In this document: in pieces, positions 26,000 through 61,746 of the stretch | Layout: every line of letters begins with the position of its first letter | Position numbering within the stretch: position 1 is the stretch's first letter | From: an uncultured bacterium | Lineage (GTDB): Bacteria; DAOPZR01 | Direction: 5' to 3' | DNA length: 64,000 nt | NCBI GenBank assembly: GCA_964637655.1 | Contig: CAZWUZ010000001.1 | Span: forward strand, 599 to 64,598 | The notes under the pieces: model-generated | The model's input: the letters and a program-made list of their open reading frames with translations, nothing else | The model's database searches: none | What the model was told of the DNA's origin: nothing | Translations under genes and position numbers: made by a program

Positions 26000-26028
26000 A
26001 TAGTACATTGTGACACTATGTATGTCAA
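26000..26028 (-). promoter_or_regulatory. sigma70-like promoter TTGACA-N17-TACTAT with conserved core TTGACATACATAG
   Basis: Read on the minus strand. The 13-bp core is identical to the sites at 31908, 41453 and 49656. This copy also carries TGACA-N7-TGTCA dyad symmetry. Confidence 0.45.
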
Positions 26029-26149
26029 TACGACGTGTTCCGCCGCTGAGGGCGTTATTGGGCTCGTTGATTGATTGTCATTTGGTATTGCTATACGCGA
26101 TTACAGTATCTTTTGGTAATCCCGGTAGGGTCCGCATTTGACTCTGTGA

Positions 26150-26632
26150 TTATTGTCGCTTCTTTCGACAGCGTAGCACTCGCGCCCGGCGGCGCCGGGG
26201 CATACGCGCCGGCTGTCCATGCTGCCCGGTTGCCTGCGTGAATATGGCGGGCGTGACGATGCGTATGCCCCGCCACGCCACCAGTTCCAGCAGATGCGCA
26301 TCACCGGATACTATGCAATCGGCATCGGCCGCGCCAGCACATTCAAGTATCTTATTGTCATCCGGATCGGCGTCGATTGCTTTGACGCACTGTGTCGCGT
26401 TGACCACGGTGAACACATCATGCAATTCCCGGACAAACATCTGCGCCTGCCGCGCGGACAACTTGAACTTCGGCCGCTGCAGCACGTCGCGGATTTCGTC
26501 AAGTATTTGCAACGAGATAAATCCCTGAACGGATCCGTCAATCACCCGTTCGAGCACACGCCGCGGCTCGCCGCCAAACAGCAATGCGGAAATAATGACA
26601 TTCGCATCGAGCACGACACGCCGCGCGCGCAT
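26150..26632 (-). CDS. PIN-domain toxin (VapC-like)
   Basis: VVLDANVIISAL and DADCIVSGDAHLL acidic motifs. The start overlaps the stop of the RHH gene. Confidence 0.7.
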   Translation of the reverse strand: MRARRVVLDANVIISALLFGGEPRRVLERVIDGSVQGFISLQILDEIRDVLQRPKFKLSARQAQMFVRELHDVFTVVNATQCVKAIDADPDDNKILECAGAADADCIVSGDAHLLELVAWRGIRIVTPAIFTQATGQHGQPARMPRRRRARVLRCRKKRQ

Positions 26633-26880
26633 CAGCGCGCGGCCTTGCGCCTGCGGTGCGCCGTGATTTCCCGGTCTACATCGATCGGCTGCAATTTCCC
26701 GCGCTGGGCGATATCCTGCCCCAGGGCGAACAGGTCGGACCAGCGTTCACGTCGCTGCAGGTAAGCCCGCGCCGCTTCGCGCAGGAACTCCGAGCGGCTG
26801 CGCGCCTCGCTCCGTGCCACCCGGTCGATGTCTTTGAGCAATCCGTCCTGAAACGCGATATTCACGGTAACCGTGCGCAT
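26632..26880 (-). CDS. ribbon-helix-helix (CopG-like) antitoxin
   Basis: 82 aa; N-terminal beta-strand plus helices (VTVNIAFQDGLLKDIDRVARSEARSRSEFLREAARAYL). Confidence 0.65.
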   Translation of the reverse strand: MRTVTVNIAFQDGLLKDIDRVARSEARSRSEFLREAARAYLQRRERWSDLFALGQDIAQRGKLQPIDVDREITAHRRRKAAR

Positions 26881-26897
26881 GTTCCACCTCGCCTGCG

Positions 26898-26929
26898 AAC
26901 AATATACAATTATTGTATATTGTTGTCAA
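26898..26929 (-). promoter_or_regulatory. perfect 13-bp inverted repeat AACAATATACAAT-t-ATTGTATATTGTT overlapping TTGACA-N17-TATATT promoter of the RHH/PIN operon
   Basis: Palindrome read directly from the sequence. -35 and -10 are on the minus strand 20-50 nt upstream of the RHH start. Confidence 0.5.
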
Positions 26930-27023
26930 CGCCCCCCCCTGTCGGCACTGTTCTACGCGCCGCGGCGGCGCGACGTTGGCCACCGTATCTCGTGGTATTG
27001 ATCCAAATGTGCAGTCCAGCTAT

Positions 27024-27548
27024 TTAGTCGACTGCGTGCCCAAAGTCATTCCAATATGACGGTTTTACCGTCACCAGTACTATTCTGAAATACTTATTCT
27101 GTTCGTCATACGGCCAGACTGCCAGCATCACACTCGACCGGTCATCGAGGTCATTCAGGTTTCGATATTCATAGCAGTTCCCGGTGAGAAAATAACTTTC
27201 TGGCAGAAATTCCGTACAGGTACTCGCGCGACGGGAAGTGTACCCCGCAGCGTTTATGGCTTTTTCGATATGACTGACAATCTCATCACAATCACGCCAT
27301 CCATCGACTGCCGTGTCTGCAGTTGCACATTTTCGCAATACATAATAGCAGCCAGACTCATCTTCCGCTGTAAGTGTCGTATGGCTGATATCCCACCAGG
27401 CTAATTCATGCGACAGCGGAACATGGACATCAATGTACGATGGTGATAGCGCCACCGACAATCCGCCATAAGCTACCATCAGCAATATTGTGGTAGCGAA
27501 TACTGCAACGCAACCATAAACATATACACGTTTCGTCGAGTTTGTCAT
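27024..27548 (-). CDS. secreted Cys-containing protein (174 aa) in the AT-richer island
   Basis: Signal-anchor VYVYGCVAVFATTILLMVAYG. Local GC is visibly lower than the flanks. Confidence 0.45.
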   Translation of the reverse strand: MTNSTKRVYVYGCVAVFATTILLMVAYGGLSVALSPSYIDVHVPLSHELAWWDISHTTLTAEDESGCYYVLRKCATADTAVDGWRDCDEIVSHIEKAINAAGYTSRRASTCTEFLPESYFLTGNCYEYRNLNDLDDRSSVMLAVWPYDEQNKYFRIVLVTVKPSYWNDFGHAVD

Positions 27549-28230: not shown

Positions 28231-28716
28231 TTACCTGACCTTGTGTAGATACTTCAGCAACGCAATAAGCAATAGTATTCCACCGGGCACTAACAGGCAG
28301 CCAAACGCTGCATACATCACCTCTCTGGCATTGCGCGGTCGATGCGGCTTTGTGGAAGGAATTCTCTTCAATACAACCTTCGGTTCTTCCCCTGAGTGTT
28401 CGGTCGGAAAGTCATCTGCACTCAATACCTGGCTCACACCAAATGCCCATACCTTCAATTGCAGCAGCATATGTCGCTGATTCTGGTCGAGACAGTCAAT
28501 CACGACGAGCGAGTATTCCGTCTTGATCCCATCTTCATCGAACAGCGGTCCAACCCGGCACCGTGAAACCACATACCCATGTTTCCGGCAATATCTCATG
28601 GCATACGCCACGTAACATCGTTCGAGCCAACCATGGGTAAAGACAAGGAGAGGTAATGCCAGAATCCCGACAACTATGGCAGTGATGATTTCGATGATGC
28701 TCTTGTCCGTCATCAT
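28231..28716 (-). CDS. membrane protein (161 aa)
   Basis: N- and C-terminal TM helices. 4-nt overlap with the stop of the sensor gene upstream. Confidence 0.45.
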   Translation of the reverse strand: MMTDKSIIEIITAIVVGILALPLLVFTHGWLERCYVAYAMRYCRKHGYVVSRCRVGPLFDEDGIKTEYSLVVIDCLDQNQRHMLLQLKVWAFGVSQVLSADDFPTEHSGEEPKVVLKRIPSTKPHRPRNAREVMYAAFGCLLVPGGILLLIALLKYLHKVR

Positions 28717-31463
28717 TGCATTCCAGACGTACTGGTCAACGCCCCGGACAACGCGCCAATTTCTTCGTCCGTCGCGCCGCCCCAGAACTCCGGGAAGCGC
28801 GCGCGCGCTGTCTGCCAGGCATTGCGGGCAGCGACGTGGTCGCCGCGGCGGGCGTGCAGCAGCCCGATGGCAACCTGCGCCGTGTGGTTGCCCGGATCGA
28901 GACGCAGCACCTCGTCGAATTTCGCCATCGCCTCATCCGTGCGCCCGAGCGCTGCCAATGCCCATGCATAGTGATACAGGTCGATATCGTTGTAATCATA
29001 GCGCAGCAACTGCTCGAGCACCGGCAGCGCCTCGGCCGGACGCCGCACCTGGTAGAGCAGCGTGCGGGCAAGCCCGCGCAATTTGCCGCGATTGCCCGGA
29101 TCGTAGCGGAGCGACAGGCGGTTCCGCTCCAGCGCGCGCTCATAATCACCGAGACGGTCGTACCGGTCGACTTCCTCGCCGTAGCCCTCCACCTGTAGCA
29201 GCGCGTCCGACGCCCCGCGCAGCCCCCGGAACAACGTCACCTGCCGCAGCGCCTCCTGCAGTTCCGCCTCGCGCCTGAGATCGCGCAGCGACACGGACAG
29301 CTGCTGCCAGACGAAACTGTTCTCCGGCACTATCTGCAGCGCCTGGCGGTATGCTTCCACCGCTTCGGTATACCGGCTGCGGGCGGCATAACTCTGCCCC
29401 TGCTTGAGGTACGCCTGCCAGCAGCGCGGATCGAGTTCGAGTGCCCGCGCGTACTCGCGCATGGCGCGCCCGTGGTTGCGCTTGTCCGTACGGTAGAAAT
29501 CGCCCAGCATCAGGTGGGGGTAGGGCGAGGTCGTCGTCTCCGCGAGGCACTCCTCCGCCAGCGCCTTCCCCTCCTCGTTGCGGTACTCGGTATAGAGCCG
29601 GCAGAGCCGCAGTTTCGCCGCCAGCGACCGGTGGCTGTCGATGGCCGCCTGCAGGTATTCCTTGCCGGTGAAGTCGTCCTCGCGCGCGAAGCAGGCCTCC
29701 GCCCGCGCCAGCAGTTCCGCCTCCGGCAGCGACGCCAGCGATTGTGCCCGCTCCCGCTCGATGCGCTGCACGGTCGCCTCGCCGAGCACGGGTACCAGCA
29801 GTGCCGCCAGGTCATTGACGCTGTCACTGATGGGCGAATAGTAGCGGCTCCCCGCCGCGGCCACCCGTCCGTCAGCCGCTACCGCGAGAAATACCGGGTC
29901 CATGTCGCATGGCGCGTAGAACCGCCCGGCGGCAAAGTGCGGCGCCTGCCAGCCCGTGAAATCGGAAAGCAGCGGGTAGGGGAGCGGATGCTTCGCGAGG
30001 AACGCGTCGGTAATGCGCCGTTCCACCTCCGGGGCGAGCACCACGATGCGCAGGCCGGTCGCCGCGTAGCGCTCCTGCAGCGCCGCAAAGGCGGCAAGAT
30101 AGAGTCGGTCCCACGGTATCCAGGTGGCCAGCACGGCCACCAGCGCCGGGCGGCCGCGCAGGTCGGCAGACGTATGAAGTATGCCGGTGCGCACCTCGGG
30201 CGCACTGAACGGCACCATCGGCCTGCCAACCAGGGCCTGCCCCTTCCAGCCCGACGGCTGGTGCAGGTTGTACCCGTCCTGCCCGCGGTGCAGGCGCGCG
30301 TCAGGCGGAAGCGGCAGCGCCAGTGCCTCCGCGGTCAGCGGCAGGTCGGTGCGTTCCCCGCTGATATGTTCGCAGGCGAGATGGCTGCGGGTATAGCCCG
30401 GCTCGTCAAGCCGGCGGACGGTGAACGAACGGAGGCGCGGCTGCTCCGCGTCGAGCACCACCTCGTACTCGCCGTCGCCGCAGCCGAAGTAGGCGCCGGT
30501 GAACGTGTAGGTGACGCTGTCATGACGGCGCACGATCTTCCGCACATCGCGGTCAAAGACCCGGCACTGGTCCTCGCTGATCTTCCCGGTGAGCAGGCCG
30601 AGGAGCAAACTCGGGCCGTAGGTGCTCCCCTCGATATCGCGCGGTGGCAGAACCGCGTACTCGCGCAGCACCGGCTGCCAGACCACGGTCTGCGTGTCGG
30701 TGTACCTGACGCTGACCGCATCGGCATAGAGCAGCGGCACAAGACGCGTGATGCCGTCGGCATGCAGCACCCGGTAGTACTGCCGGCATTCACGCCCGAA
30801 GATCCGCGACTGCCCGTGGAGTATTCCGTAGTACGGGCTGCGCTGCCGGTAGGCACCACAAACCGCAGCAAGCCGGTCGAGCAGTTTCTGCCGTTCTGCG
30901 TCTTCCGTCACGCTGATACCCTGCTGCAGCGCGCGCCATTCCTGCGTCGATCGCGCCGCCAGCGCCACGGCCAGCAACCCGGCACACATGAGCACGGTGA
31001 GCACGCGCGCCATACGCGGCGGCAGTTGCCAGTGCTGCTCTTCTTCAGGCGGTGCGCTCTCTTCCGGTGCCTCGTCATAGCGGCGCGCCAGCTCCTCCGG
31101 CGTGCCCAACGCGGCCAGCACCGCCTGCACCGCGGCAGCCGTGCGGGCGGCTGGTGCCGCCACCGCGCTTTCCGCCGCCAGCGCCGCGCGCTGCGCGCGC
31201 ACCGCCGCCAGGTCAGTCACCTTGGCCGCCGCATCGGCCTGCGCCGCCGACTGCGCCGCCCGCGCCGCCGAGGTTGCGGCATGCGCCGCCGCCGAGGCCG
31301 CCAGCACCTCGCCCGTCGGCACCCCGTCTTCCGCGAGCCGCGTCAGGATATGGTCCTCGAGTTCGAGAACGAGGTCGTTCTTCTCGTTCTCCGACATCCC
31401 GCGCAGTTGCGCGCGGAACGCCGCGAGGTACCCGGTGATTATTTCGCTATGCCTGTCTGGCAT
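28713..31463 (-). CDS. second PadR-associated membrane sensor (DUF1700/HAAS-like, TM, degenerate redoxin-like, TPR); paralog of 22164..24872
   Basis: 916 aa. Same architecture and about 80 % N-terminal identity to the first copy. The redoxin-like segment LVAVLATWIPWDRLYL also lacks cysteines. Confidence 0.65.
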   Translation of the reverse strand: MPDRHSEIITGYLAAFRAQLRGMSENEKNDLVLELEDHILTRLAEDGVPTGEVLAASAAAHAATSAARAAQSAAQADAAAKVTDLAAVRAQRAALAAESAVAAPAARTAAAVQAVLAALGTPEELARRYDEAPEESAPPEEEQHWQLPPRMARVLTVLMCAGLLAVALAARSTQEWRALQQGISVTEDAERQKLLDRLAAVCGAYRQRSPYYGILHGQSRIFGRECRQYYRVLHADGITRLVPLLYADAVSVRYTDTQTVVWQPVLREYAVLPPRDIEGSTYGPSLLLGLLTGKISEDQCRVFDRDVRKIVRRHDSVTYTFTGAYFGCGDGEYEVVLDAEQPRLRSFTVRRLDEPGYTRSHLACEHISGERTDLPLTAEALALPLPPDARLHRGQDGYNLHQPSGWKGQALVGRPMVPFSAPEVRTGILHTSADLRGRPALVAVLATWIPWDRLYLAAFAALQERYAATGLRIVVLAPEVERRITDAFLAKHPLPYPLLSDFTGWQAPHFAAGRFYAPCDMDPVFLAVAADGRVAAAGSRYYSPISDSVNDLAALLVPVLGEATVQRIERERAQSLASLPEAELLARAEACFAREDDFTGKEYLQAAIDSHRSLAAKLRLCRLYTEYRNEEGKALAEECLAETTTSPYPHLMLGDFYRTDKRNHGRAMREYARALELDPRCWQAYLKQGQSYAARSRYTEAVEAYRQALQIVPENSFVWQQLSVSLRDLRREAELQEALRQVTLFRGLRGASDALLQVEGYGEEVDRYDRLGDYERALERNRLSLRYDPGNRGKLRGLARTLLYQVRRPAEALPVLEQLLRYDYNDIDLYHYAWALAALGRTDEAMAKFDEVLRLDPGNHTAQVAIGLLHARRGDHVAARNAWQTARARFPEFWGGATDEEIGALSGALTSTSGMQ

Positions 31464-31818
31464 TCGCCCGGGCGCCCTTCGCCCCGCGTTCGCTGATCAC
31501 CGCATCGATCGTCGACACATAATCACGCCAGTGTTTGTGCATCCCCGCCACCAGTTCCCGCCCCTGCTTCGTCAGCGAGTAGTACTTGCGCGGATGCCCC
31601 GTGCCGGCGTTATGATCCCACTTGGCAATCACCGCGCCGTCCGTGCGCAGCCGGTTGAGCAGCGGGTAGAGCGTCCCTTCCGCCAGTTCGATGCCGTACG
31701 CTTCCTTGAGCAGGTTGATCAGCTCGAGGCCGTACTTCTCCCCGTCCCGCAGCACGGAGAGCACCAGCATGTCCAGCGTCCCCTTCCGTATCTGCGCCAT
31801 CCAGTCATTCAGTTCCAT
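31447..31818 (-). CDS. padR: PadR family transcriptional regulator (second copy; start at MELNDW)
   Basis: Protein almost identical to 24856..25227. RBS GAAGGAGG precedes the ATG at 31818. The listed ORF extends 5' to 31920 but the promoter lies inside that extension. Confidence 0.9.
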   Translation of the reverse strand: MELNDWMAQIRKGTLDMLVLSVLRDGEKYGLELINLLKEAYGIELAEGTLYPLLNRLRTDGAVIAKWDHNAGTGHPRKYYSLTKQGRELVAGMHKHWRDYVSTIDAVISERGAKGARANARQA

Positions 31819-31891: not shown

Positions 31892-31920
31892 ATATTACCT
31901 TGTGTCGCTATGTATGTCAA
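31892..31920 (-). promoter_or_regulatory. sigma70-like promoter TTGACA-N17-TAATAT with conserved core TTGACATACATAG
   Basis: About 75 nt upstream of the PadR2 ATG; flanked by the 8-bp inverted repeat GCGATATT/AATATCGC. Confidence 0.5.
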
Positions 31921-32039: not shown

Positions 32040-32648
32040 TCAGACTGCAACCAGCATCACTGGGACAAGGACAAACACCAGAAGCATCAGGAGCAGCAGC
32101 ACGACAGCCGCCGTCGCAGCCCAGAAGTAATGGCGCATACCTTCCGCATTCCTGAGTTTCCATGCGGTCAGGGCACCCAGGAGCAGCAGCACCACGGCAA
32201 CGGCGATGGCCACGATATTGTACCGCTCATACCTGCGTACCGGCGGGATATATTCCATTGCGCCGAGCGATGCTATGTAGCGGATGGTTTCCGCCTGATC
32301 GTTCTGCGCATCATGGACTGAGCAAATGGTATAATCGCTCCCGTTGCTGGTATAAGCATAGTCATTGCCCCAAGGATCGCGGGTGATCGTCGCGACGTAC
32401 GGCCCGCTCCACCCGGGCGCCGTATCAGTCAGCAGCTGGCCGAGCGTGCCGGGAAAAAGCGCGTCGGACACGTCAACCCGGTACAACGCCAGTGCGGAAT
32501 TGAATGCGCCAATATCGCCACTGGCAGCGCCGTTCTTTGATCTTTCAACGGAACAGGGGATCTTCGGCAGGGCAATTGCAGCAAATATCCCGATGAGAAT
32601 GACCGCAACACCCCAGCGCTCCCATCGATTCCTCCTGCACTTTGTCAT
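32040..32648 (-). CDS. GspG-like pilin-domain protein, single N-terminal helix and two C-terminal TM helices
   Basis: ALALYRVDVSDALFPGTLGQLLTDTAPGWSGPYVATITRDPWGNDYAYTSNGSDYTI matches the T2SS major pseudopilin globular-domain pattern. No G-F-T-L-I-E leader. ORF extends to 32723. Confidence 0.55.
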   Translation of the reverse strand: MTKCRRNRWERWGVAVILIGIFAAIALPKIPCSVERSKNGAASGDIGAFNSALALYRVDVSDALFPGTLGQLLTDTAPGWSGPYVATITRDPWGNDYAYTSNGSDYTICSVHDAQNDQAETIRYIASLGAMEYIPPVRRYERYNIVAIAVAVVLLLLGALTAWKLRNAEGMRHYFWAATAAVVLLLLMLLVFVLVPVMLVAV

Positions 32649-32664
32649 GCCGGAGTTACCCGCG

Positions 32665-33306
32665 TCAGCGCTCACCGGGATCACCGTTCGCAGCATCATG
32701 GTGGCTTCTTTGACGGCGCACATCCAATTCCGACAGCATCATCTGGCACGCGCTGCCGATATCGCGAGGGATTTCCAGAAACGACGAACCGGGATTGTGC
32801 GCCGGCACCGGCGGCGATCCCGCTCCCGCCTGTTCAAGGAACGGACGCACAATTTCTCCCATGGCAAGTATGCAACTGTATGCCCGGCCCTGGGTCTCCT
32901 GAACAACCAACCGGCTCAGCAACAGGGGCACGACCCGGGTATCCGGCTCGCACATGCTAAAGGTAAATACCTGTCCGCCATTGGCCAGGCGTGTCTTATA
33001 ATCCCTGTCGATTTCCACTCGCCAACCGTCAGGCAATTGCCCTGTATTGAGTTCGAGATCCGTAGTGGCGTCGAGGATAAAACGCGCCGACTTGGCAGTA
33101 TAGTCAGTGTCCGATAGTGAACAGCTGTACAGATACAGTTGCCCGATATCTGTGTCCGGCGGGATACAGTCGCGGACGACCGTAATCTGTGGCGGTGGCT
33201 CCGGCGTTGGGCCGCATGGGGACTCAAGGTACGAGAGAGTTGCGGCAAACACCACTGTCAGCAGCAGCAGCATGGACAGCACGGCAAGCCGTATTCGCGT
33301 ATCCAT
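32665..33306 (-). CDS. secreted protein (213 aa)
   Basis: Signal peptide LAVLSMLLLLTVVFAA; several Cys. Confidence 0.45.
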   Translation of the reverse strand: MDTRIRLAVLSMLLLLTVVFAATLSYLESPCGPTPEPPPQITVVRDCIPPDTDIGQLYLYSCSLSDTDYTAKSARFILDATTDLELNTGQLPDGWRVEIDRDYKTRLANGGQVFTFSMCEPDTRVVPLLLSRLVVQETQGRAYSCILAMGEIVRPFLEQAGAGSPPVPAHNPGSSFLEIPRDIGSACQMMLSELDVRRQRSHHDAANGDPGER

Positions 33307-40794: not shown

Positions 40795-40863
40795 TTATTC
40801 CCTGTTCTCCTTCACGCGCACGATGTTCCGCTGTATCTGCGCCATCCAGTCATTCAGTTCCAT
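40795..40863 (-). pseudogene. PadR gene remnant (22-aa N-terminal fragment MELNDWMAQIQRNIVRVKENRE)
   Basis: About 30 nt including the RBS GGAGGCAATAATGGAACTGAATGACTGGATGGCGCAGAT match the two intact padR starts. The reading frame ends after 22 codons. Confidence 0.55.
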
Positions 40864-41398
40864 TATTGCCTCCACCCTGCCGGGGCTGTGCCCCTGTTGT
40901 CGTTCCGTGCTCCCCATTCCCGGCCGCCGGCATTGGCGACGTCGCGGGAGTATCATTTTCGCTGTAATAGAGCGTGAAAGCGAGCGCCGGGTCCACACCG
41001 AGCCGCCGGCGCTCACGGGTAAACTGCGCCTGGGTGAACGGCCCGTGCACCCTTTCGTCTGCCACGTTCACGAGGTTGTATTCCGTCACCGCATAGTTGA
41101 TATTGCTGCCGCCGTCCGACGGATGACGTTTGGCGATGACCCAGGTACTATCGCATCCGGCAGCATATATCGTGCTGCTGACGAGTATCCCCACCATGTT
41201 TTCACTCTCACGGCGGCCAATCGAGAGTTGGCGAACATCATCGGCGGCGCTCAGTTCGAGCCTGCCCGCCAGCGGGTAATCACTCGCCGGAAAGCCGCCG
41301 CAGGCGGTCAGCAACGCCAGTGCACACAGCGCCAGCAGCATAACTGCGACCGCTTCCGCCATCCGTTCACGCGCCATCTGTGCCATCTTCACCGCCAT
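40850..41398 (-). CDS. lipoprotein (likely start MAVKMAQ...LLTACGG)
   Basis: Lipobox ALLTACGG; beta-rich body; Gly/Asn/Thr-rich C-terminus. Confidence 0.5.
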   Translation of the reverse strand: MAVKMAQMARERMAEAVAVMLLALCALALLTACGGFPASDYPLAGRLELSAADDVRQLSIGRRESENMVGILVSSTIYAAGCDSTWVIAKRHPSDGGSNINYAVTEYNLVNVADERVHGPFTQAQFTRERRRLGVDPALAFTLYYSENDTPATSPMPAAGNGEHGTTTGAQPRQGGGNNGTE

Positions 41399-41436: not shown

Positions 41437-41465
41437 TGTATACTATGTGTCGCTATGTATGTCAA
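41437..41465 (-). promoter_or_regulatory. sigma70-like promoter TTGACA-N17-TATACA with conserved core TTGACATACATAG
   Basis: Third copy of the 13-bp core, immediately upstream of the lipoprotein gene. Confidence 0.45.
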
Positions 41466-41526: not shown

Positions 41527-43068
41527 TCAGCGGGTCAGGTAGGAGCGGGCGAGGTCGTTGGCCGGGTCGAGTTCGCGTGCGGTCCGGAATGCCGCCATGG
41601 CCTTCTGCCGCTGTCCCATGTGATAGAGACAGACCCCGTACCAGGCAAAGGCCTCAGCATCATGCGGCGTCACGCGCGTGAGCCGGGCGAACATCGCGGC
41701 TGCCCGATCAAGTTCGTCGGTCTGGTAATAGCAGGCGGCGAGATTGAACAGCGCCACCGCATGCTCCGGTTCGCGCTGCAAGGCCTCTTCGTAGGCGCGT
41801 GCAGCCAGACGCGACTGCCCGGCCTGGAAAAACGCATAGGCGGAACGCAGCAGTTCCACGGTCGGCGTCGCTGGCGGGGGTGCGGTTGCCGGTACCGGCG
41901 ATTCCGCCATTTTCGTATCCGCTGCCGGCGGCGGCAGGGTCAGCATGGTCGTGGTCGGGGCAACCACCGGGGTGAGCGCTTCCCAGGGCGCCGGTGCTGC
42001 TGTCGCTGTCAGCGCCGCATCCGGTGTCGAAGCGTCCGACTTGCCGGCCGCCGGCACAGGTGCAGGCACAGATGCTGCAACCGGAGTCGGCAGCGGCGCT
42101 GTCGCCGGTACCATCACGGCCGGTGTCGCAACCGCGGTTGACGCCGCCGGCCGTGCCTGCCCGAAACAATAGCGCAGCGAGAGGCGATGCGCATCACCCA
42201 GGTCGCCATACGGCACGAAGGCATAATCCACATGGAATTCATCGTCGAGATTGACCCCGAAACCGCAGGTCAGTCCGCTCCCCGCATCGTTCTCGCCCGT
42301 ATAGCCGACCCGCAGCGCCAGCATGCGCACGATCTGCCATTCCATGCCGGCATTGAGGAAGACACGGTCGTCGCGCGGCACCACCAGATCGGTTGTCAGC
42401 AGCAGCGGCAGTTCCGGCAGGCGATAGGCGCCGCCGGCCAGCAGGGTCAGCGGCAGATTTTCACGGCGCGTCCCCGCCTGCAGCCGCGTCCCGAGATTGA
42501 GCAATGACACGCCGAGCGCCAGTCCGGGCACGGCGACGTCTGTCGCCTGCCAGCCGAGATCGACGGCAAACGCGTCGGCCTCGTACGCCGCCAGTTCCTC
42601 GCGGATGTACTTGAGGTTGACGCCCCAGGCGCCGAACTCCTCCTCCCGCCCGTAGCCGACCGTCACTGCGAGATCGCCCGCCTCCGTCCGTCCCAATCCG
42701 GTCACCGGCGCCTGCCCGTTGATCCGCGTGATATCCATGTCGCCGTAATCGAGCATGGTGACTGCCGCGCCGGCACGACCGCCATACACCTGCCCGTCAT
42801 GCACATAGGCCAGGTGGTTGTAGGTAATGTCATCAAACCACGGGGCGTGCACAAAGAGCGCCTCACCCTGCCGCAGCCGGCCCAGGCCCGCAGGATTCCA
42901 GTGCAGCGCGCCGGCATCGCGCGCCAAAGCAGTGTACGCTCCACCCAGTGCCGCGCCACGCGCCCCCGGAGCAATGAGCAGGAACGGTGCGGCGCTGCTT
43001 CCCGCCTCGTCCGCGCGCGCGGGGAGCGCCGCCAGCAGCAGCAGGCCGCAAAGCAGGAGGCGGCGCAT
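41527..43068 (-). CDS. FadL/PorV-family outer-membrane beta-barrel with C-terminal Pro-rich/TPR extension
   Basis: Signal peptide LLLCGLLLLAALPARA. Hatch motif GARGAALGGAYTALARDAGALHWNPAGLG contains NPA. Alternating beta-strand pattern. Starts 1 nt from the stop of the giant CTD protein. Confidence 0.55.
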   Translation of the reverse strand: MRRLLLCGLLLLAALPARADEAGSSAAPFLLIAPGARGAALGGAYTALARDAGALHWNPAGLGRLRQGEALFVHAPWFDDITYNHLAYVHDGQVYGGRAGAAVTMLDYGDMDITRINGQAPVTGLGRTEAGDLAVTVGYGREEEFGAWGVNLKYIREELAAYEADAFAVDLGWQATDVAVPGLALGVSLLNLGTRLQAGTRRENLPLTLLAGGAYRLPELPLLLTTDLVVPRDDRVFLNAGMEWQIVRMLALRVGYTGENDAGSGLTCGFGVNLDDEFHVDYAFVPYGDLGDAHRLSLRYCFGQARPAASTAVATPAVMVPATAPLPTPVAASVPAPVPAAGKSDASTPDAALTATAAPAPWEALTPVVAPTTTMLTLPPPAADTKMAESPVPATAPPPATPTVELLRSAYAFFQAGQSRLAARAYEEALQREPEHAVALFNLAACYYQTDELDRAAAMFARLTRVTPHDAEAFAWYGVCLYHMGQRQKAMAAFRTARELDPANDLARSYLTR

Positions 43069-46000: not shown

Positions 46001-49000
46001 AGACGACAACCGCCAGGCCGGCAGGTGCCGCGGGCGCGATGCTGTCGGCCGCAGCCGCGGTATCGACCGTTGCGCCGCGGAACGGCACCAGCCGGTAACT
46101 TTCGCTGCCCGGGCCATGGATCAGCGCGGCGATAGCACCGGCATGATCGGTACCCCAGTAATTCCGGCTGATATCGAGTTGCGGCTGCAGTGCCACCCAG
46201 GCACCGGAATCGGGATGCAGCGTGCCCGGGCGGAGATTATTACGGCGCACTGTCGCCGGCGACAGCAGCCGCAGGGCGTAGCCGGCGCATGCATCGACGT
46301 CGTTGCCGGTGATGACCGCGTTGTTCGACCCGGAAACCGAAATGCCGTCACCGCTGCTGCCGCGGACCAGGTTGCGCGTGATGCGGGCATCGTGCGCATT
46401 GGTCCTGATTTCGATGCCGGTGCTGTCGTTGCCATTGATGCGGTTGTCGGCAAGGTTGCAGCCAGTCGCATATTCGCACCGTATTCCTGCCTGCCCGTTG
46501 TCCACCAGCCGGTTGTCACTGATCTCGCTCCGGTGGGCATACGCCCCAACCCAGATGCCGCACTCCTGATTGTCCGCGGCATAATTGCCGCGCAGCACAT
46601 TATCCTCTGCACTGCTCAGCACATACCCCGAACGGTTGGTGGCATAACTGGCGTTGCCGGTGAGCAGGTTGCGATGCGATCCTTCGTACAGCGCAAAACT
46701 CCCGGCATTGAGCGTATGCGAGCAACTGATGTTGTCGCGCAGGATATTGTCACAGGCCCCGCTCAGGTAGAAGCCGCCTTCGCCGTTCTGCCAGCAGTAA
46801 TTGCGTTCCGCCGTGTTGCCGTGCGAATTGTGGAAGCAGATCGCCAGCATCGTGTTCTGCCGCACCTCGTTGCCGCGCAGCAGGTTGCTGTCCGACCCCG
46901 CTTCGAGATACAGTGCCGACTGGTTGTTGCTGAACAGCGTGCTGTCGATGCTGTTGCCGCAGGCGGCAGTCAGGCGCGCGCCCCAGAGCGTGTTTCCTGT
47001 GAGCCGGGCGCTCTCGATACGGCTGTTGCGTACGCGCGTAAAACGCACCCCTGTCACGCAGCCGTCAACCTGCACCTCGCGCAGACAGATGCCGTCAAGA
47101 TCGGTCGCGGTGATGCCCTCGCTGTTCCCGGCCCCGCGCACCGCGATGCCGTGCACGGTCACCCCGCCGGCAAGGCCGAGCACCGTGCCGGAACCTGACG
47201 CCAGCGCCGCCCACGTGTCCGGCCCGCCACCGGTGTCGGCACCGGCCTGCGCCCGGTACGAACGCAGCGTCATGCCGGTAGCAAGCGTGATCCCGCCGGC
47301 ATACGCGCCACCGTCACTCCGGCTGTAGACGATCACCGTGTCGTAGCCGTTGCCCGGGTTCAGCGCTGCAATGGCCGCGGCGGGCGACCCGAACGCCGTC
47401 AGCGGATCACCACCGCCCGGCACGCTGCTGTCGCCGCGGTCGCTGACATAGACCGTCATCGCGCCGGTATCCGCAAATACCGCCACCGAGAATCTGCGCG
47501 CCGCCGCGGTCAGCGTATCGCCCTGCAGGTTTTCCGCGATGACCCGCCAGTAGTATGTGCCGGGGAGCAGCGTCGATGCCGCCGTCGCCTGCTGCGCCGT
47601 CACCGTGCGGCTGTCGAGCAGGAGCGCGAAGGACGCTGCCTCGCTCACCTGCAGGGTGTACGTGTCACCCTGCCCGTTCCAGCGATAGACCGGCTGCGAC
47701 GGGGCAATGGTCATTTCCGCCGCCGGATACACGAGCGTCAGCGTCAGCGTCGTATCGAGCGTCAGCGTCTGCACCGGTGTCGTCTCGACTGCATTGCCCC
47801 GGGTGCTGATGACGCGCCAGTAGCAGGTGCCGGACGCGTAGTTCGCGACCGGCGTGTATGTCATGGCGGCGGTCTGCACGCTGTCCGTCAGCAGCGCGAA
47901 CGATGGCGTCGTGCTGACTTCCAGCCGGCTGCTGTCGCCGTTGGTTGTCCAGCGGAACGCCGGGGTCAGATCGCTCGAACGCATGCCGTCAGCCGGACTG
48001 ACTGCGGTCACGGTCAGTGCCGCCCCGGCCACGACCGAATACCACGACTCGTTCGGCCATGGCGCATGCGCATCGACTGCCGTCACCCGGTAGTACCAGT
48101 TGCCGCCGGGCCGAACGTCGAGATACGATGTTTCGCCCGACCCGGGCGTCGCTATCGGCTCACCCCAGTAATCCGTATCAGCCGTCGACGCGCAATAGAG
48201 CCGGTAGCCGGCAAGCCCGGTGAGCGCGCCACCGCCTTCCTCGTCGGTGGCAGTTGCAAGCCAGTTGATGACATACGTATCATCCTGCTGCCGCACCGTG
48301 ATGCCGTCCGGAACCGCAGGCGCTATCGTATCCGCGCCGGCGGACGTGTCGACGGGACCGAGGCGGAACGGCAGGACAGGCACGCGACTGTCAGCGCCCG
48401 CGCCCATGGCGGCGATGCTGCCTGAGTCCGTCGTCCCCCACCAGTTGCGCTGCAACGACAGCAGGGCGGTATCGGTCAGTCCGGTCACCGCGACTGCGGT
48501 CGCCGCCCCGCTGACCGCGATATTGTTTTTGGCGAAGGTGCAGGAGGCAACCGAGTCGGCACTGAATGCCGTTCCCTGGCTCATCTGCACTTCGTTCGCC
48601 GTCAGCAGATTGCCTGCGGTCAGCAGTTTGAATCCGAAAACCGTGTTGCCGGCAAGCCGGTTGCGCTGCAGGCGGTTCTCGCCGCCATCCTGCTCGACCC
48701 GTATGCCGGTATACTGGCCGGAACAGTCATTCCCCTCAATCCGGTTGCGCCGTGCATCCCACAAGTAGATGCCGTCGCCTGTACCGAGACCGTCCAGGTT
48801 GCTGTTGCACTGACAGTTGCTGACAACGTTGTCCGCCGAGGAACTGAGATTGATCCCGTAATACAGGTTCCCGTTCGCGCACGTCCGTTCGACCAGGCAA
48901 TGCGTCGCTGACAGGAGATACAGGCCGAACACGTTGCCGCTGAAATCACAGGCCCGGACCGTCACGCTGTCCGCCGTGCTGAGCATCATCCCCCAGTAAC

Positions 49001-49628
49001 TCTGCTGCACGCGCACATTGTCGAACAGGCAGTTGCTCACCATCTCCATGAACAGGCCACGCCAGATGTTCCGCACCGTGAGGTTGCGCACGGTGAGCCC
49101 GCTCCGGTTGCTCGCGGCAATACCCGGGGTCCACACCGGTAATCCGGTGAAATTGAACTTGCTCACGAAATCGATGATTGTGGTGGCGGAGTCGGCGCCG
49201 ATCAGCCAGACATTGTTGTCGGTAATCGTGATAGTGCTGGTTTCGGTATACGTGCCGGCATCGACGTACAGCGTGTCGCCCGGATTGAGCAGCGGGACAA
49301 CGCTCAGCAGCGTGCGTTTCGGGGTGGCGGGGGTAATGCCATTGTTGGCGCTGCTGCCGATTGCCGTGCACCAGACGTCACCCGCCGTCGCGGCGTCGTT
49401 GACGTACCAGACCTGCGCCTGCAGGAGCGTGGGTATCAGCACCAGCGACAGGACAAGGCCCAGCCGCACGACGCTCCTGACCTGCGGCAACATGCCCGGC
49501 CATGCCCTCGTTCGCACCGGCGTCTCCCCCGCCTGTTCCTTCAGTTCAGTTCCGCTGACCCGTTGGCCGCGGATGCCGCGCCTGCCGACCCGCGGACTGC
49601 AATCACCCGCGTTCCCGCCCGCTGCCAT
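43068..49628 (-). CDS. giant secreted parallel beta-helix repeat protein with T9SS-type (FlgD-Ig-like) C-terminal sorting domain; likely start at the signal-peptide Met near 49496
   Basis: 2186-aa ORF with many PbH1-like repeats (NxxxxNxxxGIxL). C-terminus VYPNPYVP...SGVYIILLRSGSETATRKVIVVR is CTD-like. Confidence 0.7.
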   Translation of the reverse strand: MAAGGNAGDCSPRVGRRGIRGQRVSGTELKEQAGETPVRTRAWPGMLPQVRSVVRLGLVLSLVLIPTLLQAQVWYVNDAATAGDVWCTAIGSSANNGITPATPKRTLLSVVPLLNPGDTLYVDAGTYTETSTITITDNNVWLIGADSATTIIDFVSKFNFTGLPVWTPGIAASNRSGLTVRNLTVRNIWRGLFMEMVSNCLFDNVRVQQSYWGMMLSTADSVTVRACDFSGNVFGLYLLSATHCLVERTCANGNLYYGINLSSSADNVVSNCQCNSNLDGLGTGDGIYLWDARRNRIEGNDCSGQYTGIRVEQDGGENRLQRNRLAGNTVFGFKLLTAGNLLTANEVQMSQGTAFSADSVASCTFAKNNIAVSGAATAVAVTGLTDTALLSLQRNWWGTTDSGSIAAMGAGADSRVPVLPFRLGPVDTSAGADTIAPAVPDGITVRQQDDTYVINWLATATDEEGGGALTGLAGYRLYCASTADTDYWGEPIATPGSGETSYLDVRPGGNWYYRVTAVDAHAPWPNESWYSVVAGAALTVTAVSPADGMRSSDLTPAFRWTTNGDSSRLEVSTTPSFALLTDSVQTAAMTYTPVANYASGTCYWRVISTRGNAVETTPVQTLTLDTTLTLTLVYPAAEMTIAPSQPVYRWNGQGDTYTLQVSEAASFALLLDSRTVTAQQATAASTLLPGTYYWRVIAENLQGDTLTAAARRFSVAVFADTGAMTVYVSDRGDSSVPGGGDPLTAFGSPAAAIAALNPGNGYDTVIVYSRSDGGAYAGGITLATGMTLRSYRAQAGADTGGGPDTWAALASGSGTVLGLAGGVTVHGIAVRGAGNSEGITATDLDGICLREVQVDGCVTGVRFTRVRNSRIESARLTGNTLWGARLTAACGNSIDSTLFSNNQSALYLEAGSDSNLLRGNEVRQNTMLAICFHNSHGNTAERNYCWQNGEGGFYLSGACDNILRDNISCSHTLNAGSFALYEGSHRNLLTGNASYATNRSGYVLSSAEDNVLRGNYAADNQECGIWVGAYAHRSEISDNRLVDNGQAGIRCEYATGCNLADNRINGNDSTGIEIRTNAHDARITRNLVRGSSGDGISVSGSNNAVITGNDVDACAGYALRLLSPATVRRNNLRPGTLHPDSGAWVALQPQLDISRNYWGTDHAGAIAALIHGPGSESYRLVPFRGATVDTAAAADSIAPAAPAGLAVVVSDSSCTISWAAVTTDEEAGGTFSRATYRVYRTGISDDTGWHQHQVLTTDGTTYVDTGINRLTTYYYRVTAFDTHSADGRVWENESWLSETLCVNGYNRYDGYARTDLIVAAVTATPALLAFGMDATFTATLRNVGSQPFTGPVTVTFSLSADTQPDAGDTVITTVMQPVLAVAAEGEVALSATVSVPHTWAFGVPYRILAVLTAADSVPGNNVGVSAEMVTTAYAHGFTPPVDGWAFANYSGGVVDWTVYRMAFGADQVEYPDGRHRPSADAFYGALPHSFAGSCFGFSLSALRLFNGDTPVPGGAAFTGAAGRTTASLNLINAFHLFQYGTSEFVAYRYAHWASPPPLRTTFTRLCAALSGTDSSAYPELEFFSGVNHSVVPYKVCRAADTAAENYLVYVYENNLPGDEARVFNFNLTGGTWSYLNSPWGTLSGGSSSLLLPPIRLADTRPRIPTAYLDAWPDVDYVQFTNVASFTLLLDGQVAATYADSRLQTASDSVFPLYVPSAPGDTVLAGMLVFGRQPFSISGTTRLEATQPATWRVFRQDRFIVLSATSSGGADTLVFAETECRFRPERVSVVRWQIGQVLGDEEQVFRLTDPAAPAGSELAVGFGDSSALALASTGETHTLTLELERSTPAGSVVRRLDPLLLPAQAAVTLSGIGWQALPTVDLQVATDLAGDGTVDETAPIDAPQVVADTLVVLARTTRDDTATFLLVTDSGGSMAVDIPVYSQLAGDYGDTLRLQIELAGADTGQRIGIRRVDPDSFTRRGLREYAAYLSTVFGLEVSDSAGRDLGSRPASFRTLTLTYTFAPGRLTRAQAEQLRFYTYDETSVSWQEAGTTTFDWDARTLIVQLPHLSIYGLFPGAGFAAPAADLRNAVVYPNPYVPHDGDPGNGIPYGSPGDGSGIYLNGLVPGTQVDIYDVRGRLIDRISVPEGTGAVQWDVRNTAGEDVASGVYIILLRSGSETATRKVIVVR

Positions 49629-49639: not shown

Positions 49640-49668
49640 AATATACCACGTTTTCCTATGTATGTCAA
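49640..49668 (-). promoter_or_regulatory. sigma70-like promoter TTGACA-N17-TATATT with conserved core TTGACATACATAG
   Basis: Fourth copy of the 13-bp core, directly upstream of the giant gene. Confidence 0.45.
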
Positions 49669-51326: not shown

Positions 51327-51328
51327 CA

Positions 51329-54165: not shown

Positions 54166-54217
54166 TGCCTGGCCTCACGGTGGTCATTTTCGACAGTAGC
54201 ATAGTGTTGTCTGCGAC

Positions 54218-58976: not shown

Positions 58977-59596
58977 GGAATCTGCTCCGTCTTGCCGTTG
59001 CTGAACACATACCTGATGGTTTCGGCAACACCGTACCAGGTCGCATGCACGCTCTGAATCGTGTAGTTGCTGCCATCGCAGGTGTAGGCGTATCGGTTAT
59101 CCCATGGATCAGTGGTGATGGTTGCCAGGTACGGGCCGCTCCAGCCGGCCACGCCGTCGCTGTAAAGTTGATGCAGCGAGGTCAGCGGAAAGCGTTGGTC
59201 GCGCACATCCTCGCGGTACAGAGCCAGCGCCGGGTTGAATGCTTTCTCGATGTCGCCGGTTGCGCCTTGACGTTTCGACACATCGATCGCGTCTTCCAGG
59301 TGGAACCCGGCAACTCTGCACCAGACCAGCGCCAGCAGGACGGTGTAGGCCGTAAGGCGGACAGCACGCCCTTTGTCCCCGCCATGCCAGGCAAAACGCG
59401 CTGCGATGACCAGCGCAATGAGTGCCAGCGGCGCACACAGGTAGAGCAGAACGCTGAAATGCGTCCCGCACAGCAACCACGCCCAATGGCGTACCGGTTT
59501 CACCGTGCCGAACAACAGCAGGAACAGCAGTATCGCGCATGCCGCACTCCAGCCGAGCAGCTGCAGCCTTCGCCACAGTATCTGTCGGTCTTTCAC
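58973..59596 (-). CDS. GspG-like pilin-domain membrane protein
   Basis: ALALYREDVRDQRFPLTSLHQLYSDGVAGWSGPYLATITTDPWDNRYAYTCDGSNYTIQSVH...ETIRYV. Confidence 0.6.
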   Translation of the reverse strand: MKDRQILWRRLQLLGWSAACAILLFLLLFGTVKPVRHWAWLLCGTHFSVLLYLCAPLALIALVIAARFAWHGGDKGRAVRLTAYTVLLALVWCRVAGFHLEDAIDVSKRQGATGDIEKAFNPALALYREDVRDQRFPLTSLHQLYSDGVAGWSGPYLATITTDPWDNRYAYTCDGSNYTIQSVHATWYGVAETIRYVFSNGKTEQIP

Positions 59597-59659
59597 TGTT
59601 CTATCACCCGCATCAATCCACGTTGCATAGTGAGTTTATCTCCGCCGCCGTTGCGCATC

Positions 59660-60076
59660 TTACTGGTATTTTGCCCGGTATAGTTCCTGCGCGCGCATGC
59701 GCACCGCAGTGTCGGCTGCAACTTCGGTGATGGCGGTCGGCGACGGCACGAAGGCCATGTCGCCGACATCGGAGCTTTGCAGCACGATGGTGTCGCCGCT
59801 CTGCATCCAGCCCAGCGCCCACTTGTTCGCGTCGCCCGCGCGCGTCAGCAGGGTGGCGCACTCCTGCCCGGTGGTATCGGTCAGATGCAGCACAACATGC
59901 GCGTAGTCGGCGCGACTGGTATCGGTGGCATTGACCGACGCGAACACGCCATACGTGCCTGATGGCGACGGGTACGGCCCATCAGTATAATCCGACCTGC
60001 CGCAGGCGACGAGCAGGGCGAAGCAGGCTAGTCCGACGGCCAAGGTCAGGCATGGCATACGTCGCATGATCGTCAT
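59660..60076 (-). CDS. lipoprotein (138 aa)
   Basis: LAVGLACFALLVACG lipobox. Confidence 0.5.
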   Translation of the reverse strand: MTIMRRMPCLTLAVGLACFALLVACGRSDYTDGPYPSPSGTYGVFASVNATDTSRADYAHVVLHLTDTTGQECATLLTRAGDANKWALGWMQSGDTIVLQSSDVGDMAFVPSPTAITEVAADTAVRMRAQELYRAKYQ

Positions 60077-61701
60077 TCGACTGCACCGCAGTCTACGGGC
60101 GTGAGCGATATGCCCATGCCATACAGTTTGAATACCCGCTCCCGGTCGCCACCGGTGACGCTGACACGGTAATCACCCTGTGCAGGAAATTGTATGTCCA
60201 CGGAACTGTCCTCCCCCTGCAGCAGATAACGCCCCCGTTCCTGCCGCCCGCTGCTGCCGGTTATCAGCAGCCCGGTGCCGGAAACCGAATCGGTTGCGGT
60301 CACGATCATCCCTGTCGGATTATCTCCCTGCCCCGGGTAGAACCTGCCGGCATAGACAGCATCTGGCACCGGCGTGAGTGTGCCTTCATGCCCTGCCATT
60401 CCTACCTCCACCAGCACCGTTCCCGGCGCCATGAAACGGTGATTATCGGCGTCAGCATCGCTGCGCCGCGGCGCAAAGCATGTTGCCCCGACAAGAGCGA
60501 GAAACACCAGCAGGAGAACCATATGCACCCAGATACGCCAAGTGGGCACTGCCTTTGCCGGGGGCGCCGCCGGAGCACTCTCCACTTCTGGCAGCACGCT
60601 CTCGCCGGCAGCCGGGGCGCTTTCCGGTGCGGCCGGCTTGCTCATGGCCACGGTCGCATCGACCAGCAGCGGCGCAAGCCACCACAACTGCATCAGGAGC
60701 AGGAGCCAGACCGCGATGAGCATTACCGCCGCGAGTGACATGATGAACGATGAGTGCGTAAATCCGTAGCCAAACAGCAACACAGCAACAGCCAGCGCAA
60801 TCCAGAGCGACACCGTTTGCCAGCGGGGAACGGGCAGCATGCGCCTGTAATAGACATACTGTGACGTAAAAAACAGGATGTACAGGGTGGCGAGGTACGC
60901 CGGCGCCTCCACAACGAACACCCGTACTCCTTCGCCTGCCGCCATTGCCCGGGCAAGTACGCCCGCATGCCGGCTGATCAGCAGGACAAGGGCAATTCCA
61001 TTCAGCACCGCGTTGGCCAGCATCCACAGCGTCAGCCGGCGCAACAGGGTGATGCGTTCCCCGCGGCGTCTGACGGCTTCCGCCTCATCCGCCGATGGGG
61101 CTTGAGTTGCACGCTTGCGTATCGTTTCGGCTGCCTGACGCCAGTTGGCGGCAAGATTGAGTGCCATGACGGCACCAAGACAGGTTGCCGCCGCGGCCAT
61201 CAACTGCCCCCATTCGCCGGGCAGCAGGAGCGAGGCACTGTAAAGGGCGCCGCACACTGACAGCAGCAACATGAACCACACCATTACTGCGCGGTTGTTG
61301 CGGCGTCGCGTCGCGTCATCGAATGCCTCCGGCCATGGCCGGCGCCGGCGGGTAACCTGATAGATGCCGGTCCATGCCAGCACGCAGGCCGCGATAATCC
61401 ACAGTTCAGCAGAGAAGTACGCGGCAAACGTTTCCGGCGGCCGCCGGACGTTGAGGCAGTTGAGCAGCATCAGCCCGGCGGCGACGCTGCAGAGCATCAG
61501 TTGCAGCGTGGCATTCTCGTACGGCAGTAGCGGGCCGGCAGAACGTGTTGGTTGCAGGGCGGCGAGCCGTTTCTCCCGGCGGTGCAGCAGAAACACGATG
61601 AACCATACCGGCAGCACGAAGCCCAGGGCAAGCAGCAGGACCGGCACCACCAGCATCATGAATATCAGTACGGCATCCAGCATCCCCGCGCCCCCCTCCA
61701 C
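60073..61701 (-). CDS. polytopic envelope protein with C-terminal beta domain; paralog of 52042..54165 (annotated start is GTG; ATG at 61683 is possible)
   Basis: Shared TM core (LMLCSVAAG.MLLNCL) and C-terminal GTLTPVPDAVYAGRFYPGQGDNPTGMIVTATDSVSGTGLLITGSSGRQERGRYLL. Confidence 0.55.
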   Translation of the reverse strand: MEGGAGMLDAVLIFMMLVVPVLLLALGFVLPVWFIVFLLHRREKRLAALQPTRSAGPLLPYENATLQLMLCSVAAGLMLLNCLNVRRPPETFAAYFSAELWIIAACVLAWTGIYQVTRRRRPWPEAFDDATRRRNNRAVMVWFMLLLSVCGALYSASLLLPGEWGQLMAAAATCLGAVMALNLAANWRQAAETIRKRATQAPSADEAEAVRRRGERITLLRRLTLWMLANAVLNGIALVLLISRHAGVLARAMAAGEGVRVFVVEAPAYLATLYILFFTSQYVYYRRMLPVPRWQTVSLWIALAVAVLLFGYGFTHSSFIMSLAAVMLIAVWLLLLMQLWWLAPLLVDATVAMSKPAAPESAPAAGESVLPEVESAPAAPPAKAVPTWRIWVHMVLLLVFLALVGATCFAPRRSDADADNHRFMAPGTVLVEVGMAGHEGTLTPVPDAVYAGRFYPGQGDNPTGMIVTATDSVSGTGLLITGSSGRQERGRYLLQGEDSSVDIQFPAQGDYRVSVTGGDRERVFKLYGMGISLTPVDCGAVE

Positions 61702-61717
61702 TGCAACCTATGCAGGA

Positions 61718-61746
61718 TTATTACATAGTGTTGCTATGCTCGTCAA
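61718..61746 (-). promoter_or_regulatory. diverged copy of the conserved promoter (TTGACG-AGCATAGCAACACTATG-TAATAA)
   Basis: Same -35/spacer architecture and CATAGC..ACAC core as the four identical sites. About 10 nt upstream of the 542-aa gene. Confidence 0.3.

Follow-up and report, generated by a model that had tools for sequence, protein, structure and literature searches.

We analysed a 64,000-nucleotide stretch of DNA from an uncultured bacterium (lineage DAOPZR01; assembly GCA_964637655.1, contig CAZWUZ010000001.1, positions 599 to 64,598), hereafter the window. A short element recurs in it at five sites, in front of operons with padR regulator genes and of genes for envelope proteins. 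We read this element as a promoter with a probable PadR operator built into its spacer.

A palindrome in the spacer of five predicted promoters

The 13-mer TTGACATACATAG occurs four times in the whole window, always on the minus strand (26016-26028, 31908-31920, 41453-41465 and 49656-49668), and in none of 100 dinucleotide-preserving shuffles. These are the positions given by the original prediction, which also named a related element in front of a 542-amino-acid (aa) membrane protein gene. This fifth copy, TTGACGAGCATAG at 61734-61746 (minus strand), has three mismatches to TTGACATACATAG. On the 13-mer alone it is not significant, as nine window matches are found at up to three mismatches and 7.2 are expected. 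We nonetheless accept it because it shares a longer unit with the others, a repeat search having grouped all five sites into 27-31-nucleotide (nt) families (D10 and D15), and because it scores 12/16 on the palindrome described below. Three-mismatch matches at 27162, 27571, 33343 and 48268 were rejected, being at chance level and below 11/16 on the palindrome.

The 13-mer belongs to a 29-nt cassette made of TTGAC, a palindrome (ATACATAG-N5-CnnnGTAT) and AAT. The seven conserved nt after the -35 hexamer are the left arm of a 21-bp imperfect palindrome, ATACATAG-N5-CTATGTAT. It fills the 17-nt spacer between -35 and -10 and overlaps both hexamers, by one base at the -35 (the final A of TTGACA) and by three at the -10 (its opening TAT). 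We scored the palindrome as matches over its 16 specified positions. Only the five sites reach 12/16 or more in the 64 kb, where block shuffles expect 0.65, and four of them reach 13/16 or more, where 0.025 are expected. All five sites therefore carry, at 12-14/16, a dyad-symmetric site of about 16-21 bp, as is the case for PadR operators at their own promoters. The cassettes are as follows.

26000..26028, minus strand: site 1, TTGACA TACATAGTGTCACAATG TACTAT; -35 TTGACA at 26028-26023, operator at 26023-26003 (ATACATAGTGTCACAATGTAC, 14/16), -10 TACTAT at 26005-26000
31892..31920, minus strand: site 2, TTGACA TACATAGCGACACAAGG TAATAT; -35 at 31920-31915, operator at 31915-31895 (13/16), -10 TAATAT at 31897-31892
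41437..41465, minus strand: site 3, TTGACA TACATAGCGACACATAG TATACA; -35 at 41465-41460, operator at 41460-41440 (13/16), -10 TATACA at 41442-41437
49640..49668, minus strand: site 4, TTGACA TACATAGGAAAACGTGG TATATT; -35 at 49668-49663, operator at 49663-49643 (13/16, right arm CGTGGTAT), -10 TATATT at 49645-49640
61717..61746, minus strand: site 5, TTGACG AGCATAGCAACACTATG TAATAA; -35 TTGACG at 61746-61741, operator at 61741-61721 (GAGCATAGCAACACTATGTAA, 12/16, right arm near-perfect), -10 TAATAA or AATAAT

The five -10 hexamers had been predicted as listed (TAATAA for site 5). The predicted distance of 17 nt also holds, but it has to be counted from the end of the TTGACA hexamer and not from the end of the 13-mer. 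In alignments, the flanks beyond the shared unit are unrelated between sites, and the similarity stops at about 27-31 nt. The site 2 sequence has an identical copy on a contig of the Joint Genome Institute (L119). Loci of Bacillota and Acidobacteriota often have another full operator past the -10, but none is evident in the window.

Promoter identity was also assessed independently of the repeats. A sigma-70 scan (TTGACA-/TATAAT-like hexamers, 16-18 nt apart) placed sites 1, 2, 4 and 5 among its best matches (10-11 of 12). Site 3 was missed because its -10, TATACA, lacks the final T. The window also holds a canonical TTGACA-N17-TATATT promoter without the palindrome (26929-26901, minus strand), so that the spacer sequence is not the default for promoters of this organism. 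This promoter lies upstream of a gene pair found between the two PadR modules (26150-26880, minus strand), which consists of a PIN-domain toxin gene and a small upstream open reading frame (ORF).

Genes behind the five promoters

All five sites lie upstream of co-oriented genes, and the first product behind each of them is an envelope protein. The gene contexts given in the original prediction for the five sites are as stated there. The genes concerned are listed below; TM stands for transmembrane.

25334..25894, minus strand: ORF of 186 aa, the first behind site 1; four TM segments predicted, no Pfam match
24856..25227, minus strand: padR1, a PadR-s2-type winged helix-turn-helix (HTH) regulator of 123 aa (PF03551, 68.7 bits)
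22164..24872, minus strand: HAAS1 partner, 902 aa, with an N-terminal HAAS domain (PF22564, 36.9 bits, cut-off 27) and a TM segment at aa 146-164
31447..31818, minus strand: padR2 (PF03551), 123 aa, 97% identical to PadR1
28713..31463, minus strand: HAAS2 partner, 916 aa, with a HAAS domain (PF22564, 39 bits, cut-off 27), a TM segment at 151-169, an AhpC/TSA-like fold and TPR
40850..41398, minus strand: lipoprotein gene of site 3 (lipobox LLTAC); the ORF runs to 41437 and the likely start is an ATG between 41398 and 41362
40795..40863, minus strand: padR remnant, a mini-ORF of 22 codons with its own ribosome-binding site and the 5' end of padR (MELNDWMAQI...)
43068..49517, minus strand: gene of site 4, a giant secreted protein (2186-aa ORF) with Beta_helix/NosD repeats and a signal peptide
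60073..61683, minus strand: gene of site 5, a polytopic membrane protein with about 10 predicted TM segments (542-aa ORF; the ATG at 61683 is the probable start and gives 536 aa)

Both PadR modules are organized as HAAS-PadR dyads: a standalone padR is followed by a gene with an N-terminal HAAS domain, which is fused to a membrane/sensor module. The start of the HAAS1 gene overlaps the padR1 stop by 17 nt, and the padR2 partner overlaps likewise by 17 nt. The two partners are single-pass proteins with about 740 aa outside the cell, matching Redoxin/AhpC-like and TPR families. The outside part of HAAS1 has a thioredoxin-like fold without CxxC, plus TPR repeats. In the thioredoxin-like regions of HAAS1 and HAAS2, WIAWD or WIPWD stands in place of CxxC. 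By its sequence this region is probably redox-inactive, and it may serve as a binding module.

The regulators are far more alike than their partners. While HAAS1 and HAAS2 are 50% identical in protein and 73-79% in DNA, the DNA of padR1 and padR2 shows just one difference as far as about codon 92 and an identity of about 96% over 300 nt. At the protein level, residues 1-100, winged HTH included, do not differ between PadR1 and PadR2, and both should accordingly read the same operator. The pattern suggests gene conversion or a recent copying event limited to the regulator gene. By sequence the window PadR is of the PadR-s2 type, with PDB matches that include 5dym, 3f8b and 4esb.

At site 3, the mini-ORF fuses the first 10 PadR residues to QRNIVRVKENRE and is followed by radical-SAM and AAA genes. 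It is conserved in the related locus L120 (MELNDWMAQKQRNVARVRENRG, at about 1100-1177), and is therefore either an old remnant or a peptide retained for a reason. At site 4, the likely start of the giant protein is the GTG at 49517 or the ATG at 49493, which leaves a leader of about 115-140 nt. Its C-terminus matches Por_Secre_tail (PF18962) with E = 0.0029 and 18.3 bits, below the cut-off of 27, and the label of a type IX secretion system (T9SS) protein is thus a weak one. A homologue search with its N-terminus returned one 29%-identical protein, and no homologue outside its own contig was recognised. The same search with the site 5 membrane protein returned only itself and a paralogue in the window (52042-54165).

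Two further sequences in the window resemble parts of the cassette. Directly upstream of padR1, TTGCCATAGGCAATGAAGCGTAATAG (25297-25322, minus strand) is like a decayed cassette with a shortened spacer; it looks as if the ORF with four TM segments and a new promoter had been inserted ahead of an older padR1 promoter. The other, CAACACTATGCTACT (54195-54220, minus strand), lies upstream of the 707-aa paralogue at 52042-54165. It matches the right half of site 5, with no left arm or -35, and is probably a decayed duplicate of the site 5 promoter.

The motif lies in front of padR genes in many phyla

We ran a pattern scan of 185,579 species genomes with TTGACATACATAG-N5-C-N3-GTA (17 fixed bases). 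The scan returned at least 118 loci, one match each, from at least 12 phyla. The matches listed include Acidobacteriota, Verrucomicrobiota, Gemmatimonadota, Chloroflexota, Bacillota, Ignavibacteria, Saccharimonadales, Poribacteria, Hydrogenedentota and others. Since about 70 matches are expected by chance at uniform composition, the raw number of loci means little by itself and it is the context that counts.

The context is highly consistent. Among the matches listed, 102 loci have a PadR1-like ORF (30-43% identity, tblastn) about 35-130 nt downstream on the same strand, and a PadR hidden Markov model adds six. With seven loci excluded as uninformative (contig end within 160 nt), padR is thus found in 108 of the 111 informative loci listed. 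The three others comprise one decayed padR with its partner kept and two loci without padR.

Positions left free by the pattern are conserved as well. In the consensus of the listed matches, position 21 is A in 99% of cases, position 22 T in 73%, position 26 T in 87% and position 27 A in 75%, which is the direction predicted by the palindrome and the -10. A further half-site, CTAnGTAT, lies at positions 34-41 in the listed motif loci. The consensus of the palindrome itself draws on 114 unique loci among the matches listed and on 75 loci selected by homology.

In all seven motif loci sampled, padR is followed by a gene for a 'permease prefix domain 1' protein (NF038403). Among the matches listed, the partner has a Pfam HAAS domain (PF22564) at E<=1e-3 in only 11 of 96 cases, and hhalign gives 7% probability for a motif-locus partner against the window HAAS. 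Based on these two values we do not equate permease prefix domain 1 with HAAS.

Two details of individual loci are worth recording. In L004, L016, L020, L022 and many loci of Acidobacteriota and Verrucomicrobiota, padR starts 35-39 nt after the first T of the -35, which is about 3-4 nt past the expected transcription start, so that these padR mRNAs would be essentially leaderless. L005 (CAZUGF010000034.1) is labelled 'uncultured Bifidobacteriaceae' and has the promoter, padR and 460-aa partner typical of Acidobacteriota loci; it may be a binning contaminant.

padR genes chosen by homology carry the palindrome

In the reverse direction, we collected 80 metagenome loci purely by homology to the window PadR (38-74% identity), using a 22-sequence alignment as the query. 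A palindrome of at least 12/16 is present within 150 nt upstream of 61 of 75 PadR genes (81%), compared to 14 of 3687 control windows drawn from the same fetched loci (0.4%), an enrichment of about 200-fold. The fetched loci amount to 1.2 Mb and contain 219 strong palindromes, of which 201 are no more than 700 nt away from a padR gene. The next gene has a Pfam HAAS domain in 61 of 62 homology-selected loci.

The fusion to the promoter is less common. Only nine of the homology-selected loci have a promoter of the TTGACATACATAG type at up to three mismatches. In this set the palindrome usually covers the -10 and the transcription start, and not the spacer. For example, one locus reads TTGACA-N17-CAATAT ACATTGTATTACAAGGTAT..ATG, with the palindrome detached from the -35. 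The palindrome thus goes with padR rather than with the promoter hexamers, which marks it as an operator and not a promoter variant.

In four AT-rich, Bacteroidota-like loci (L144:1213, L165:959, L199:2168 and L201:5913), a second strong palindrome follows just after the HAAS gene. Candidate effectors of the dyad are encoded behind it, either small secreted proteins or CAAX-protease-like (Rce1-like) membrane proteins. Targets of the palindrome beyond padR thus appear to exist elsewhere, but as a minority.

Close relatives of the window

The closest comparison is the L120 locus (GCA_964517215.1), which is syntenic with window positions 8-21.7 kb, with proteins 70-87% identical. There an exact motif heads a series of genes for a lipoprotein, a padR-remnant peptide, a 217-aa protein, PadR and a 91-aa HAAS-only protein. 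The lipoprotein of site 3 is an orthologue of the first of these. Site 3 itself is orthologous to L120:503, with 20 consecutive identical nt, while the upstream flanks are hardly alignable. A second motif copy in L120, with one mismatch, lies ahead of another lipoprotein-like gene. The 91-aa HAAS partner (L120:2262-2537) has no membrane or sensor part, compared to the two partners of about 900 aa in the window; the sensor part of HAAS partners seems to be gained or lost readily.

Two other relatives have the motif. L204 (PadR 72% identical) carries two fused copies within 4 kb, one before small membrane genes other than padR and one before a padR-HAAS pair. In L124 (PadR 74% identical), TTGACATGCATAG... 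precedes padR and a HAAS gene of 909 aa. No other locus examined had four exact copies within 24 kb, as the window does.

Comparison with known systems

In a proposal of 2024, HAAS-PadR pairs form a widespread alternative two-component system, with HAAS passing a membrane signal to PadR (Ravi et al., PMC11237479). In Listeria, the HAAS-associated regulators LltR and LstR repress their own expression about 150-fold and about 140-fold by RNA-seq (Hauf et al. 2019, PMC6624303), and promoter fusions gave >50-fold and 77-fold repression (PMC6624303). These dyads (LltR-Lmo0600-Lmo0601 and LstR-Lmo0421) and the window modules have in common a small padR coupled translationally to a gene for a membrane protein with an N-terminal HAAS domain, an autoregulated operon and envelope proteins as targets (in the window, both proposed from its sequence). 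They differ in several respects. Neither an operator nor a regulon is defined for these dyads in PMC11237479 or PMC6624303. The window partners have an unusual outside part of about 740 aa, and the two modules share one DNA-binding domain. In addition, the window operator also occurs at two promoters unlinked to padR.

The palindrome can be compared with operators of other PadR-s2 proteins. cdPadR1 of Clostridioides difficile binds two TACT-N11/12-AGTA boxes (that is, TAC-N13-GTA) at its own promoter, one of which overlaps the -35/-10 region, and binds additional promoters as a regulon (PMC5050560). Both proteins are of the PadR-s2 type (the window PadR has 5dym as one of its best PDB matches), and the outer triplets and spacing, TAC-N13-GTA, are the same. 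The inner half-site of cdPadR1 (GTACTAT...AGTA) and its AT-rich core differ from the ATACATAG-N5-CTATGTAT of the window. LmrR is also of the PadR-s2 fold family and an autoregulated repressor. Its operator oligonucleotide, TACATAGTAATGTGAAGTATAAT (PMC5428041), opens with TACATAG-N5-TGAAGTATAAT, like the window cassette. Unlike the window PadRs, LmrR lacks a HAAS partner and is itself the drug sensor. The canonical PadR operator ATGT-N8-10-ACAT (PMC3506622, PMC5428041) does not match, as the arms of the window palindrome stand in reverse order, ACAT-N9-ATGT, flanked by TA...TA.

Finally, acidobacterial PadR paralogues (TIGR03433) with NF038403 partners have the same 25-nt TTGACATACATAG-N5-CnATGTA before padR. 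The window PadR is only about 30% identical to them and scores 69 bits against the TIGR03433 cut-off of 101.8. The relation of their partners to HAAS is weak, as judged by the PF22564 count of 11 of 96 in the listed matches and the hhalign value of 7% given above.

A probable PadR operator built into the promoter

Taken together, we consider it highly probable that the element combines a sigma-70-type promoter with an operator, placed in its spacer, for a HAAS-associated PadR repressor, and that it would mediate autorepression by occlusion, relieved through HAAS. The built-in operator can be written TTGAC[A TACATAG N5 C NNN G TAT]AAT. The 108 of 111 listed loci and the enrichment of about 200-fold strongly support the original prediction of a regulator that binds across a sigma-70-type promoter, PadR being the candidate. 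The near-consensus hexamers, the optimal 17-nt spacer and the position of the site in the space of RNA polymerase fit repression by occlusion.

According to this model, dimers of PadR1 or PadR2 would occupy the palindrome and block RNA polymerase. Through sites 1 and 2 they would repress their own operons. At site 3, PadR would repress a former padR operon with the lipoprotein gene now at its head, at site 4 the gene of the giant secreted beta-helix protein, and at site 5 that of the membrane protein with about 10 TM segments. Repression would be weaker at sites 3 and 4, where the right arm is degenerate. The HAAS partners would sense an envelope signal via their thioredoxin-like and TPR parts and alter the availability of PadR for DNA, leading to derepression. 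We infer PadR binding, the direction of repression, the signal and the co-regulation of sites 4 and 5 from the sequence.

Three of the five sites are promoters of present or former padR operons, and the case for a regulon beyond autoregulation has therefore to come from sites 4 and 5. On the evidence within the window alone, the extension to the giant beta-helix and membrane proteins is plausible. The original prediction had proposed a small regulon linking the sensor modules to a T9SS-type surface protein. Of this, the T9SS label (18.3 bits against 27) is weak.

Several observations weigh against the proposed operator or its scope. The right arm is degenerate at site 3 (CATAGTAT) and site 4 (CGTGGTAT), and the -10 of site 3 (TATACA) is poor. 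The target genes of sites 4 and 5 have no homologues outside the contig in which conservation of the two sites could show. In L205 and L206 (PadR 76% identical), no motif was found near padR. Moreover, the LmrR operator resembles the cassette, and the element may not be specific to HAAS-associated PadRs among PadR-s2 proteins.

We also considered other explanations for the element. Bound to the same site, PadR might instead activate transcription or have a dual role, be it at all five promoters or only at some of them; MerR-like remodelling of the spacer would be one way. MerR-type activators also bind between -35 and -10, the model of Ravi et al. leaves the sign open ('release or reconfiguration', PMC11237479) and the weak -10 of site 3 might need help. 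Nonetheless we judge this unlikely: MerR-type activation needs spacers of 19-20 nt while the spacer here has the optimal 17 nt between near-consensus hexamers, the palindrome of homologous loci lies over the -10 and start site, a position typical of repressors, and the HAAS-associated LltR and LstR are repressors.

Conservation of the spacer at padR promoters across at least 12 phyla, with random flanks, argues against a second explanation, in which the five sites are constitutive sigma-70 promoter copies derived from duplication of a padR promoter, with an inherited spacer that no regulator reads. So do the palindromes detached from the -35 in homologous loci and the canonical window promoter at 26929-26901, which has none. 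Copying as such has left traces: 20-21 nt, N5 included, are the same at site 2, site 3 and L120:503, the padR remnant at site 3 shows that promoter DNA was moved by duplication or rearrangement, and padR1 and padR2 bear the marks of gene conversion. Overall, we regard purely inherited copies as quite improbable.

We give slightly less credence still to a reading of the sequence by a factor other than PadR, either an alternative sigma factor of the extracytoplasmic function (ECF) type or an unrelated transcription factor. While some ECF promoters have TGACA-like -35 elements and the Listeria lstR operon is co-controlled by sigma-C (PMC6624303), dyad symmetry is typical of a dimeric HTH protein and not of a sigma factor. 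In addition, padR is the sole gene that co-occurs consistently (108 of 111 among the matches listed, and 201 of 219), binding to a palindrome spaced TAC-N13-GTA is documented for a PadR-s2 protein (PMC5050560), and none of the 36 window ORFs scanned, a part of all its ORFs, has a sigma-factor domain.

Last, a dispersed repeat (of the repetitive extragenic palindrome or miniature inverted-repeat transposable element kind) or an RNA hairpin in the 5' leader would account for a short multi-copy palindrome in intergenic DNA, but was rejected as extremely improbable, since the similarity ends at about 29-31 nt, neither terminal repeats nor target duplications accompany it, all copies have the same orientation and promoter position directly upstream of genes, the right arms have changed against a constant left arm without compensation or co-variation, the site lies upstream of the predicted transcription start, and Rfam has no match in the window at gathering thresholds and none at the motif in eight related loci at E<=0.1.

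A possible operator code for partnered PadRs

Beyond the preferred reading of the five sites as PadR-repressed promoters, we put forward a broader proposal, for which we would claim somewhat less than an even chance. ATACATAG-N5-CTATGTAT may be a near-universal operator code for PadRs paired with HAAS or permease-prefix proteins in at least 12 phyla, often fused to the promoter (25 nt identical from Acidobacteria to Clostridia). Here it may have been copied to the promoters of envelope genes, that of a 2100-aa surface protein among them, creating a two-sensor regulon of several operons in which the PadR DNA-binding domains are kept identical by gene conversion.

Autoregulatory PadR operators, HAAS-PadR dyads and PadR-s2 palindromes of this spacing are already known. 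In the searchable literature we did not find the consensus ATACATAG-N5-CTATGTAT, a near-universal palindrome at HAAS-PadR gene pairs, or the promoter-fused form with 25 nt identical across phyla. A conserved operator that can be searched for would allow regulon prediction in any genome and would supply precise probes for how the HAAS partner controls PadR. For this organism, we predict that a lipoprotein, membrane proteins and the giant secreted beta-helix protein all answer to the same two envelope sensors.

Other features of the window

Just upstream of site 5, the window holds an MqsA-like antitoxin ORF (61855-62151). There are also at least five paralogous T2SSG pseudopilin-like genes (32040-32723, 54218-54829, 62492-63238 and D3 copies at 55038 and 59091). 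These paralogues share a conserved stretch of 89 nt and are surrounded by many TPR proteins and ORFs without a family match.

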